Virus record (IMG/VR): IMGVR_UViG_2636416136_000013
Span: 1 to 40,427 of that record
Source: a virus
Taxonomy: Duplodnaviria; Heunggongvirae; Uroviricota; Caudoviricetes
Length of the DNA stretch: 40,427 nucleotides
Strand: one strand, 5' to 3'
In this document: piece by piece, positions 9,741 through 13,669 of the stretch
How the letters are laid out: every line of letters starts with the position of its first letter
How positions within the stretch are numbered: the stretch's first letter is position 1
Position numbers and translations under genes: made by a program
The notes under the pieces: model-generated
What the model was told of the DNA's origin: nothing
What the model saw: the letters and a program-made list of their open reading frames with translations, nothing else
Databases searched by the model: none

Positions 9741-10034
9741 ATGGTTCGTGCAAACAAACGCAACGAGGCTCTAAGAATCGAGAGTGCGTTGCTTAACAAA
9801 ATCGCAATGCTTGGAACTGAGAAGACAGCGGAAGCTGTGGGAGTTGATAAGTCGCAGATCAGCAGGTGGAAGAGGGACTGGATTCCAAAGTTCTCAATGC
9901 TGCTTGCTGTTCTTGAATGGGGTGTCGTCGACGACGACATGGCTCGATTGGCACGACAAGTTGCTTCGATTCTCACCAATAAAAAACGCCCGGCGGCAAC
10001 CGAGCGTTCTGAACAAATACAAATGGAATTTTAA
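9741..10034 (+). CDS. cII: Transcriptional activator CII
   Basis: MVRANKRNEALRIESALLNKIAMLGTEKTAEAVGVDKSQISRWKRDWIPKFSMLLAVLEWGVVDDDMARLARQVASILTNKKRPAATERSEQIQMEF is essentially lambda CII; the upstream sequence ttgcatacattcaatcaattgttatctaaggaaatacttacat also matches lambda. Confidence 0.95.
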   Translation: MVRANKRNEALRIESALLNKIAMLGTEKTAEAVGVDKSQISRWKRDWIPKFSMLLAVLEWGVVDDDMARLARQVASILTNKKRPAATERSEQIQMEF

Positions 10035-10056
10035 TAACATCCAACTAGGCAATTAT

Positions 10057-10329
10057 ATGCGAAACAAAGGCTTTAATCCACCTGATACACACAAAGAAGC
10101 TAAGCGTTTGCGCTTCCTTCGTTCCATTGATGAAAGAACTCAAATCTCTTTTGTGAAAGTTGCCAGAACTGAGCTTCTGAAGGCTGAGGCGAGGGCGTTG
10201 CTCCCGTCTCTACCAAAAGAGGAGGGATATACGTTCATTCCAAACGCATTTCTGGAAAAGCTGCTCAAAGAAGACATATCCGTAAGTCAGTTTAACGATG
10301 TTCTTAAGGTCTTTCGTCAAGGCAGGTAG
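10057..10329 (+). CDS. Hypothetical protein (90 aa) between cII and the replication genes
   Basis: ORF frame 9784..10329, start set at MRNKGFNPPDTHKEAKRLRFL... just downstream of the cII stop. Confidence 0.5.
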   Translation: MRNKGFNPPDTHKEAKRLRFLRSIDERTQISFVKVARTELLKAEARALLPSLPKEEGYTFIPNAFLEKLLKEDISVSQFNDVLKVFRQGR

Positions 10330-10331
10330 TT

Positions 10332-11279
10332 ATGAGCAATACAGCAAAAATCTACGATTTCAGCGCCGCACACGAGCGCAGGAGCAACAGGATGGAGAAC
10401 CAGAAAACTGGTTACATTCCGTTGTACCGGAGCATTCTGAAACAGTCATGGGCGAAAGATGTTTATCTTCGCACCCTGTGGGAAAACCTTCTCCTGAATG
10501 CCGCCAGAAAGCCATACAAAGCGAATTTCAAAGGTCATGAATGGCATCTGCAACCCGGTCAACTGGTTGTGACAGCAGCTGATTTAGGTCTTCAGTTATG
10601 CGACAGGCATGGCAAGCCGGCAAGCCGTGATCAGGTTGAGCGGATGCTTCAGGTTTTTGTGAAAGAGGGGATGATCTCCATTGATGGGGAGAAGCAAAAA
10701 GGTCGTGTGATAACCATCACAAATTACCATGAATATGCTCAAAAAATGGACAATTCACCCGCACATGAAGCCGCACAAACAACCGCACATGAAGCCGCAC
10801 ATGATGAAGCCAGTAATGGCGCGGCTTTCAGCGCACATGCCGCACATGAAAGCGCACATGAAGCCACACAAACAACCGCACATCATGAACAAGAAGGTAT
10901 TAACAAGAATATAAATAATACCCCCCTACCCCCCAATGGGGGAGGCGATGGGCAGGTTAAACCTGAACGTCGCAAGGCAGAACGAATCGACTACGAATCC
11001 TTCCTGAACGCCTACAACACCGAAGTCGGTGACAGACTGCCACACGCTGTTGCGGTCAACGAGAAACGCAAACGCCGCCTGAAGAAAATCATCCCGCAAC
11101 TGAAAACGCCAAACGTGGACGGTTTCAGAGCGTATGTCAGGGCGTTTGTACATCAGGCCAAGCCGTTTTACTTCGGAGACAACGACACTGGCTGGACGGC
11201 AGATTTTGATTACCTGCTGAGGGAAGATTCGTTAACGGGAGTTCGGGAAGGGAAGTTTGCAGACAGGGGGATTGCATGA
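10332..11279 (+). CDS. O: Replication initiation protein (O-like; internal repeat-encoded linker)
   Basis: Located where lambdoid phages encode O / P22 gene 18; [10 protein letters not shown] start resembles lambda O; central region encodes repeated AHEA/TTAH units from DNA direct repeats; stop overlaps the helicase start (ATGA). Confidence 0.75.
10758..10899 (+). repeat. Iteron-like direct repeats inside the O-like gene (candidate replication origin) followed by an AT-rich stretch
   Basis: Multiple copies of CGCACATGAAGCC / GCACATG units within ~140 bp, then aacaagaatataaataata and a C-rich/G-rich inverted element; the same layout as ori-lambda inside O. Confidence 0.6.
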
Positions 11280-13669
11280 GACAGGATATCGAAGCGAGCG
11301 TTATCGGTGGCCTGCTGATTGGTGGATTAACTCCAACCGCCAGTGACGTTCTGGCAACGCTTGAGCCGGAAGCGTTTTCAATTCCGCTCTACAGGAAAGC
11401 CTTCGAAGTTATCCGTAAGCAGGCGAGAAACAGAAATCTAATCGACGCGCTGATGGTTGCCGAGGCGTGCGGAGAGGAGCATTTCACGTCAATCCTGATG
11501 ACCAGCAAAAACTGCCCGAGTACCGCAAACCTGAAGGGATATGCCGGAATGGTCGCGGATAACTATCACCGCCGTCTGGTGCTGGAAATCATGGATGAAA
11601 TGCGTGAACCAATTCAGAGCGGAACCATCGACGCGTCGAGTCAGGCGATGGATGAACTTGTAAAGCGTCTCTCAGCTATCAGAAAGCCCCGTGACGAGGT
11701 TAAACCGGTACGCTTAGGGGAAATCATCACCGACTACACTGACACGCTTGACAGGCGTCTGAGGAACGGAGAAGAGTCAGATACCCTGAAGACCGGAATC
11801 GAAGAACTTGATGCCATCACCGGAGGGATGAACGCGGAAGACCTGGTGATAATCGCTGCTCGTCCTGGTATGGGGAAAGCAATGGCGCTAAGCGAAGGGA
11901 TTTTACTTGCAGATGGCACCTGGACTACTCACGGAGAAGTCAAAATTGGCGATCGCATCGCGTCAATAGACGGGCTTCCTTCGGAGGTAATTGGCGTCTT
12001 CCCACAAGGGAAGAAATTCACATATTTAGTCACCTTTGAAGACGGACGTAGCGTGAAATGTGCCGACAACCACTTATGGGAAATTTCATCATCAAGATTT
12101 ACTGGTAAACGCGTTGTTGATACTGATGCGCTGGCTGGGATGCTACAAAAAACACGTTATCAGGGAAGAATAAGAGTGCCATCCTTGACCGGAGACTTTG
12201 GTAAAAATATTTCCCTTGATGGTTGGGTTATTGGTGCTCTACTTGGTGACGGTTCGTTGATAAAAGGCATCAAATTCACCAACTCGGAAGAATATGTCCT
12301 GAGCCGCATGAGTGATGCAATTGCACCATTGCGACTGGTTAAGGTAGGAGAGAATGATTATTTGATAAGCAACCAAAAAGGCCAGAAGAACCCACTATTG
12401 GACAAACTACGTGGCATTGGGGTGATCGGGAAAGGTGCGTCCGAGAAGGAAATCCCAGCAGAAATTTTTAGTGCTAGCAAAGAAATACGTACCGGTGTTT
12501 TAACTGGCCTTCTCGAGACAGATGGCTGGGTTGAGAAGTCCGGATGCATCCGCTTTAGTTCATCCAGTCAGAAATTAGCTAAAGGATTAGTAAGGCTTGT
12601 TAGATCTTTAGGTGGAACCGCCAAAGAATCCAGCAGGACGGGAATAGTTTACACGTACAAAGGAGAGAAGCATGACGGACTTGATGCACACATGGTCAGC
12701 ATGAAGTTGCCATCATCTTTGATAGAGCAAATTCACTCACCACGTTTACGCAAAAATCTCGGGATTAACAGGCTTGGCGACCTTGGTGTGGGTATCAAAT
12801 CGGTTGAAGTTGTTGAGCCAGAAGAGTGTCTCTGCATCATGGTAAGCCATCCTAGCCATCTCTATGTGACAACGGATTACATCGTTACGCACAATACGGA
12901 ACTGGCGCTGAAGATTGCCGAAGGCGTTGCAAGCCGCGTTATTCCTGGTTCTGACGTCCGGCGCGGGGTATTGATTTTCTCAATGGAAATGAGCGCATTG
13001 CAGATTGCAGAGCGAAGCATTGCCAACGCCGGGAGGATGTCGGTTAGCGTACTGCGAAATCCTGCATCGATGGATGACGAAGGCTGGGCGCGCGTTGCTA
13101 ACGGCATGAGTCAGCTTGCAGATTTGGATGTATGGGTAGTCGATGCCTCGCGGTTATCGGTCGAAGAAATACGCTCAATCGCAGAACGGCACAAACAGGA
13201 AAATCCAAACCTGTCACTCATCATGGCGGATTATCTTGGCCTGATTGAGAAGCCGAAAGCAGATCGCAACGACCTCGCAATTGCTCACATCTCCGGAAGC
13301 CTTAAGGCGATGGCGAAAGACCTGAAAACGCCTGTGATCTCCCTAAGTCAGCTTTCGCGCGATGTTGAGAAGCGACCAAACAAACGCCCGACAAACGCAG
13401 ATTTGCGTGATTCAGGAAGCATTGAACAGGACGCAGACTCAATCATCATGCTCTATCGGGAAGCGGTATATGACGAGAACAGTAGCGCCGCGCCATTTGC
13501 TGAAATCATCGTGACGAAAAACCGTTTTGGCTCACTTGGTACGGTTTACCAGCGGTTCTGTAACGGACACTTTGTTGCATGTGACCAGGATGAAGCCAGA
13601 CAGATTTGCACAGCATCAAATGCACCTGCTGCGCGTGGCAGACGATATGCACAAGGGGCTGACGTATGA
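11276..13669 (+). CDS. DnaB-family replicative helicase interrupted by an intein
   Basis: Walker A ...[11 protein letters not shown] is split from [10 protein letters not shown]...; C-terminal DnaB motifs follow ([49 protein letters not shown]). The exteins alone total ~458 aa, normal for DnaB. Confidence 0.9.
11879..12895 (+). mobile_element. Intein (~339 aa) with a LAGLIDADG homing-endonuclease domain inserted in the helicase P-loop
   Basis: Block A-like A(M)[13 protein letters not shown] after GMGK; block B NHLW; two LAGLIDADG motifs ([13 protein letters not shown] and [14 protein letters not shown]); block F ECLCIMV; block G YIVTHN followed by Thr. The exact N-terminal boundary is uncertain by about 2 residues. 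Confidence 0.8.

Follow-up and report, generated by a model that had tools for sequence, protein, structure and literature searches.

Initiator gene and the elements inside it

The stretch of DNA analysed here (the window; 40,427 nucleotides, positions 1 to 40,427 of IMG/VR record IMGVR_UViG_2636416136_000013) is, overall, that of a CUS-3-like P22-type phage. Our subject is an array of short direct repeats that lies within the gene for the O-like replication initiator of this phage and that very probably belongs to a replication origin. An earlier note, made from the sequence alone, had placed an iteron array, an AT-rich block and a C-run/G-run inverted element at positions 10745-10945 of the window and had compared them with ori-lambda. 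All three elements are real and these coordinates are accurate (Table 1).

The initiator, a protein of 315 amino acids, matches the Pfam family Phage_rep_O (PF04492) over residues 20-132 (E value of 3.3e-15; 56.8 bits versus a curated cut-off of 28.7), and its entire length matches PHROG 345, 'replication initiation O-like' (E value of 5e-100). The O genes of phages CUS-3, JEP4, Gally and HF4s are 98% identical to the initiator gene, that of Kapi1 is 97% identical and those of around 48 Shiga toxin (Stx) 2a-converting phages are 97.9% identical. Genes resembling cII, cro and cI lie upstream. A phage-encoded DnaB-like helicase gene, rather than a loader of the lambda P type, adjoins the initiator gene; its exteins are 95-100% identical to CUS-3 P.

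Eight in-register 12-bp units of the form (C/G)CGCACATnnnn, referred to here as the CCGCACAT type, occupy positions 10759-10887. They are in frame with the initiator open reading frame (ORF), so that each encodes one tetrapeptide, and the array begins at residue 143. The concentration of the core is far from random: the hexamer CGCACA occurs 20 times on the plus strand of the window and 8 of these copies fall inside 156 bp, where approximately 0.05 would be expected (Poisson P of around 5e-16). Tandem Repeats Finder reported only the two half-arrays, each with a period of 12. The conserved core spans 7-8 nucleotides and is asymmetric, the units lack dyad symmetry and no inverted repeat was found inside the array. 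No second iteron array or other origin-like region was seen in the window, in which two of the eight plus-strand CCGCACA heptamers lie outside the array. An off-register ninth copy, GCGCACATG, is present at 10831-10839 inside the spacer between the clusters; many close relatives have GCGTACATG there.

The earlier note had also held that the repeats encode a repetitive protein linker, and structure prediction bears this out. In an AlphaFold model built on an alignment of 25 sequences, residues 31-140 have block-mean predicted local distance difference test (pLDDT) values of 66-90, and two helices (residues 82-88 and 99-111) and a beta wing (115-129) are predicted to form a winged helix-turn-helix (HTH) in which residues 99-111, encoded by nucleotides 10626-10664, would be the recognition helix. 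Residues 138-215 have a pLDDT of less than 50 and are without secondary structure, and helices are again predicted at residues 221-305. Repeats, AT-rich tract and C-run/G-run element alike fall within the low-confidence segment; because that segment encodes a predicted disordered linker, its DNA would be able to carry other signals. Foldseek comparison of the model with the PDB returned only weak matches (E values of around 0.1), including the winged-helix regulators CodY, ArsR/CadC, MarR and TubR, which fit the predicted fold class only and indicate no specific homologue. A PDB sequence search with the initiator returned nothing at E values of up to 1.

Table 1 Features of the initiator gene and the adjoining helicase gene in the window.
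Feature	Position	Strand	Basis or remark
O-like initiator ORF, 315 amino acids	10332-11279	+	
N-terminal winged-helix DNA-binding domain, residues 29-136	10416-10739	+	AlphaFold, predicted
Iteron cluster 1, four 12-bp units, core (C/G)CGCACAT	10759-10806	+	sequence, comparison
Units of cluster 1	10759 CCGCACATGAAG; 10771 CCGCACAAACAA; 10783 CCGCACATGAAG; 10795 CCGCACATGATG		
Central spacer, 33 bp, begins AAGCCAGTAATGGCGCGGCTT	10807-10839	+	conserved among loci
Iteron cluster 2, four 12-bp units	10840-10887	+	sequence, comparison
Units of cluster 2	10840 CCGCACATGAAA; 10852 GCGCACATGAAG; 10864 CCACACAAACAA; 10876 CCGCACATCATG		
AT-rich tract, 33 bp, 18% GC, A-rich on + strand; predicted DNA-unwinding element, mosaic junction	10888-10920	.	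composition, stability
Inverted element C6-TA-C6-AAT-G5, reads CCCCCCTACCCCCCAATGGGGGAGG	10921-10945	.	right of AT-rich tract
C-terminal helical domain, residues 216-315, P22 gp18/HK97 O type; presumed helicase-recruiting	10977-11276	+	identity and AlphaFold
DnaB-like replicative helicase gene (P22 gene 12 analogue)	11276-13669	+	Pfam DnaB, DnaB_C, LAGLIDADG_3; alignment to 458-amino-acid CUS-3 P

Selection on the DNA of the linker

A scan of one genome per species yielded 65 loci that encode relatives of the N-terminal domain (41-87% identity) in many genera of the Enterobacterales. Loci were taken from genome contigs, since a protein search with the N-terminal domain returned mostly truncated 'partial' entries. 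The comparisons below use, unless stated otherwise, a set of 52 loci with CCGCxCAT-type arrays, which includes the window and two phage loci and in which the N-terminal domains are 63-87% identical. Arrays were registered on an anchor, CATGAACAA; its invariance is by construction and is not independent evidence, and what counts is its consistent offset in all 52 loci.

The geometry is the same throughout: each of the 52 loci has a 12-bp period and two clusters with equal numbers of units (3+3 or 4+4). Over the N-terminal domain, the first, second and third codon positions have a mean information content of 1.47, 1.69 and 0.76 bits, respectively, the normal signature of selection on a protein. 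In the units, this pattern is reversed. The third codon positions (unit positions 2, 5 and 8) carry 2.0, 1.9 and 1.4 bits, and unit positions 2-7 are near-invariant (at least 1.8 bits; 146 units from 23 loci). Positions 9-12, among them first and second positions of codons, are near random (0.1-0.6 bits). Unit position 5, the wobble base of an alanine codon, is A in 99% of 146 units at 23 loci (A-type) and G in 99% of 212 units at 29 loci (G-type), and the two are almost never mixed within one locus. A synonymous base that is uniform within each locus yet not the same from locus to locus is what would be expected of sites that share a binding protein, and not of selection on a peptide.

These patterns bear on the possibility that the repeats are merely a tolerated, slippage- or recombination-prone protein linker, in which the DNA has no role of its own and the origin consists of the AT-rich tract and C-run/G-run element only, or lies elsewhere. 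The predicted disorder of the segment, the database proteins with one to four clusters and the poor conservation of the linker amino acid sequence would all fit. Selection on protein, however, does not explain invariant wobble bases beside near-random first and second codon positions, nor does a passive linker explain why the choice between GCA and GCG is uniform across the units of a locus and tracks residue 100 of the HTH (see below). Array length is, moreover, invariant in 58 of 80 close IMG/VR relatives (the 58 in which the anchor was found) despite frequent point differences. We therefore regard this explanation as quite improbable.

Database initiators of 284/288/292, 315, 346 and 357-377 amino acids have 1, 2, 3 and 4 clusters, respectively, in steps of 31 residues. 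One step (31 amino acids, 93 bp) corresponds to one four-unit cluster plus spacer, which suggests that the array grows and shrinks by higher-order units; such duplication can yield clusters of equal size. Several loci depart from the common form. One from a Symbiopectobacterium metagenome-assembled genome (L141) is degenerate, with a single three-unit cluster and no spacer, and one from Xenorhabdus ehlersii (L089) leaves the family pattern past cluster 1 and the start of the spacer and looks like a decaying prophage copy. At the other extreme, a contig labelled 'Martelella alba' (L139; NZ_SZPQ01000041.1) has four copies of the four-unit cluster and three spacers in a gene for 378 amino acids; its label is alphaproteobacterial and its initiator is of enterobacterial type, and the taxonomic assignment looks doubtful.

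Match between repeat type and DNA-binding domain

Only two columns of the N-terminal-domain alignment, residues 82 and 100, separate A-type from G-type loci perfectly. All 23 A-type loci have Asp at residue 100 and all 29 G-type loci have His; at residue 82, the former have Ala or Pro and the latter Ser, Thr or Leu. Both residues lie in predicted helices of the HTH, residue 100 being second in the predicted recognition helix. A neighbour-joining tree calculated without these two columns shows at least four changes of iteron type, so that the association does not reduce to one split between clades.

More-distant relatives (41-51% identity) have SAK, SPQ, SPK or TPK at residues 98-100 and unrelated 12-bp units (CCGATGAACC, GAGGTAACAAA and GTCCAACCATCC), arranged in the same layout of two clusters, spacer and AT-rich tract. 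These comparisons support a correlation in which repeat type is matched to the DNA-binding domain of the initiator. They also lend weight to the proposal of the earlier note that initiator and origin have a specificity distinct from that of lambda: the units change with the N-terminal domain, and the A/G switch tracks Asp/His100. The pairing of residue 100 with unit position 5 is a predicted specificity contact that could serve the engineering or typing of replicon specificities. Shiga-toxin phages, in which the level of replication affects toxin output, are among those to which this would apply.

Central spacer

All 52 loci share one spacer length, and the jump between the last unit of the first cluster and the first unit of the second is exactly 45 bp in each. 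The left 21 nucleotides (AAGCCAGTAATGGCGCGGCTT, 10807-10827) are equally conserved at codon positions 1, 2 and 3, follow the pattern A-A/G-n-CCAGTAATGGCGCGGCTT and contain the sequence CCAGTAATGG. Lineages whose units and C-terminal domains are unrelated nevertheless retain the spacer (at the same position in loci L087-L150), and this element of around 21 bp may be a site for a second factor.

A hairpin in the spacer was considered and dropped: the single-stranded DNA folds no better than shuffled sequences (z = -0.41), and a seemingly compensatory change from GCC/GGC to CCC/GGG was inconsistent across loci. An Rfam scan of the whole window gave no match, and so no known RNA element accounts for the conserved DNA of the linker.

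AT-rich tract, inverted element and module exchange

The conserved tail CATGAACAAGAAGG precedes the AT-rich tract in all 52 loci, and the 30 nucleotides past the core of the last unit have a mean GC content of 18% (range, 3-23%). In the window, the least stable 30-mer of the initiator gene starts at 10891 (-30.9 kcal/mol, compared with a window mean of -41.6 and a standard deviation of 3.2) and ranks 78 among 40,397.

The C-run/G-run element to the right of the tract is a conserved sequence element, the structure of which is unproven: its fold is only marginally better than that of shuffled sequences, with modest hairpins of -6.6 kcal/mol on the plus strand (z = -1.4) and -8.3 kcal/mol on the minus strand (z = -2.1). 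It also occurs in P22, inside the annotated rep_origin, in HK97, in Citrobacter phage Omnitron and in Pasteurella phage Pmp10, and is kept at the DNA level though the C-terminal domains of the last two are only 47% (Omnitron) and 36% (Pmp10) identical. Lambda-type loci have a palindrome centred on GAATTC at the same site, and a further C-terminal type has TCATCTGAAGATGA. Three unrelated inverted repeats thus occupy this one position, and such a repeat just right of the tract is a recurring part of the layout.

The initiator itself is a mosaic. In tblastn comparisons, residues 190-315 share 97.6% identity with HK97 O and 60.5% with P22 gp18. Residues 3-143 match initiators of Klebsiella and Yersinia phages (74-80% identity), which keep CCGCACAT arrays and then continue into a lambda-type O C terminus and a lambda-P-type loader. 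Similarity to HK97 and P22 starts, and similarity to the Klebsiella and Yersinia phages stops, within the AT-rich tract. The alignments show the tract as an apparent joint for swapping modules of initiator specificity and helicase recruitment.

Such a joint raises the question of whether the spacer, the AT-rich tract with its CATGAACAAGAAGG tail and the C-run/G-run element are homology patches ('boundary sequences') for module exchange and not parts of an origin. The junction to two unrelated C-terminal modules within the tract is what such patches would produce, and the CUS-3 record annotates 'boundary sequences' elsewhere in the region. Exchange alone nevertheless leaves unexplained the iteron behaviour of the units, the retained AT-richness across the 52 loci and the three unrelated inverted repeats at one position; the central spacer, furthermore, is internal to one module and not at a junction. 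Of the alternatives considered here, we find this the hardest to credit.

A putative origin of replication

We conclude, with a probability of roughly 80%, that positions 10759-10945 are the replication origin of this P22/CUS-3-like lambdoid phage, placed inside the part of the initiator gene that codes for the disordered linker. The layout of the elements, the DNA-level constraint and the way in which the repeats vary together with the DNA-binding domain are observed directly; for binding, unwinding and helicase loading we infer a course by analogy with ori-lambda and P22 (PMC7466680, PMC3349717, PMC8022706). The winged-helix domain (residues 29-136) would bind the eight direct units, probably as one monomer per unit rather than as lambda-style dimers on dyads, because the units are short and asymmetric. 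The resulting nucleoprotein complex would strain the adjoining AT-rich tract (10888-10920) and lead to its melting, and the C-terminal domain of the P22 gp18 type may then recruit the DnaB-like helicase of the phage itself without a loader of the lambda P type.

Several points weigh against this conclusion. In the literature searched, we found no footprint, ori-plasmid test or description of this repeat type. The units are 12 bp long and non-palindromic, compared with the dyads of approximately 18-24 bp of lambda, P22 and HK97, so that the mode of binding cannot simply be carried over from lambda. The HTH residues are encoded 130-260 bp upstream of the units, and their co-segregation with unit type could partly reflect linkage or shared ancestry. 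A model based on initiator specificity leaves the conserved central spacer unexplained and likewise has no explanation for the strict equality of cluster sizes. The C-run/G-run hairpin is weak. Finally, database proteins with one, three or four clusters exist, so that array size is not tightly fixed, and a tolerant linker would allow the same.

The units might also be true initiator sites with a mainly regulatory function, in titration or 'handcuffing', in autoregulation or as a roadblock to transcription in the replication operon. There are precedents: lambda iterons carried on plasmids can silence replication in trans (PMC3349717), and the extra iterons of Stx phages are weakly bound yet needed (PMC7466680); cluster number, too, varies among the relatives of the window. 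Against this stand the position of the array, directly beside a conserved AT-rich tract like the iterons of ori-lambda and P22, and the lack of any second array or alternative origin-like region in the window. A chiefly regulatory array strikes us as very unlikely, a little more so than the passive linker discussed above, and regulatory and origin roles of the same units are in any case not exclusive.

Lambdoid phages are already known to have origins with phage-specific iterons within their O-like genes (PMC8022706), and the origin proposed here is, in concept, an expected feature of such a phage. Its short non-dyad units, two equal clusters and conserved spacer are unusual. The records examined have no origin feature over this repeat type, and label the genes there only as 'replication protein'. 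We raise, as a tentative and rather doubtful extension, that this is an origin layout undescribed for lambdoid phages, in which monomer-sized 12-bp sites form two equal clusters on either side of an element of around 21 bp; a second conserved factor (a protein of the host, or a surface that is invariant among initiators) bound to that element would organize two initiator filaments into an open complex, and Asp/His100 would recognize A/G at unit position 5 through a simple code.

The replicon is widespread, occurring in CUS-3-like P22-type phages, in around 48 Stx2a-converting phages, in Klebsiella, Yersinia and Enterobacter phages and in prophages of many genera of the Enterobacterales. The comparison gives a precise, testable map of the proposed origin. 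The locus also illustrates that a coding region can hold dense signals at the DNA level where its product is a disordered linker.

Neighbouring genes and database records

The helicase gene is split inside the Walker A motif (GMGK|T) by a 339-amino-acid intein (nucleotides 11879-12895) that carries a LAGLIDADG homing-endonuclease domain. It starts with Ala rather than Cys or Ser, has THN at its end and is followed by Thr. The CUS-3 helicase is the same protein without the intein; the Stx2a-converting phages LC6160xx have the allele with the intein, at 98.8% identity. A plus-strand ORF at around 10040-10329, flanked by the cII-like gene and the initiator gene, has no Pfam match and holds the position of P22 orf48 and HK97 gp53. 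As listed, this ORF runs from 9784 to 10329 with a GTG start and overlaps cII, and its true start is therefore probably further downstream.

Many database initiator entries (P0001-P0073) are marked 'partial' and end in or just past the array, where assemblies seem to break, probably because the C-terminal half is common to prophages that are co-resident in one genome. Record OR850084.1 (2.7 kb), entitled 'Staphylococcus phage SA 1298 Kay', encodes an O-like initiator of enterobacterial type (60-64% identical to this family) and is probably mislabelled or a contaminant. Three PLSDB 'plasmids' (CP148757.1, NZ_CP077781.1 and NZ_CP091500.1) are circular phage genomes of 36-50 kb that have the initiator and array module and no typed replicon. 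As proof of autonomous replication these records are weak, and we did not use them as such.

Comparison with known systems

The likeness to ori-lambda suggested by the earlier note holds for the general plan. The initiators belong to the same family, Phage_rep_O; the origin lies mid-gene, past the codons for the DNA-binding domain; and iterons are followed by an A-rich AT tract and then by an inverted repeat (PMC7466680, PMC3349717). Lambda has four imperfect dyads of 18-19 bp, approximately 20-24 bp apart, whereas the units of the window number eight, are 12 bp long and form two equal clusters with a conserved spacer between them; being non-palindromic, they do not have the imperfect inverted-repeat form of the lambda iteron. 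In lambda, O forms an O-some and lambda P loads host DnaB, in contrast to the P22-type C-terminal domain and phage DnaB-like helicase of the window, and the inverted repeat of lambda is centred on GAATTC rather than built of C6, C6 and G5.

P22 and HK97 share with the window the type of C-terminal domain, the adjacent DnaB-like helicase gene and the right end of the origin (...AATA-C5-TTA-C5-N3-4-G5), which lies within the rep_origin feature of P22. That feature covers iterons, AT-rich tract and CCCCCTTACCCCCTAAAGGGGG, and its right half is common to the window. The N-terminal domains and iterons of the two phages are unrelated in sequence to those of the window: P22 has four dyads of the GGTAAAAC-A-TTTACC type approximately 23 bp apart and HK97 has TTAGCT-AAAAC-AGCTAA dyads. 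Unlike the window, neither has a central spacer, and the left part of their AT-rich tract reads CACAAAAGACAAT... rather than CATGAACAAGAAGG...

Lambda O, P22 gp18 and L gp18 have each been stated to have their own iterons inside the gene (PMC8022706). In gene 18 of phage L, six imprecise 11-bp repeats (TGTCCAACGGA) have been described as a putative origin (PMC8022706). They resemble the array in the window in being units of around one helical turn inside an O/18-like gene that were called an origin from sequence alone, and differ from it in the units themselves. Phage L was not among the matches listed for a tblastn search with the window initiator, and its record was absent from a tblastn search of the phage collection with the L139 initiator, which has GTCCAACC-type units; no link is therefore shown.

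The Stx phages 933W and P27 have six lambda-type iterons (PMC7466680) and lambda-type O and P proteins. As in the window family, with its one to four clusters, iteron number differs from one close relative to another, and the initiator linker has insertions to match. The Stx2a phages LC6160xx, unlike 933W and P27, have CCGCACAT-type units and the helicase. Iteron plasmids (RepA, pi and TrfA) offer a more distant parallel, with a winged-helix initiator and direct repeats beside an AT-rich unwinding element. Their iterons are approximately 17-22 bp long and lie outside the rep gene, usually with DnaA boxes, whereas the putative origin in the window is itself coding sequence.

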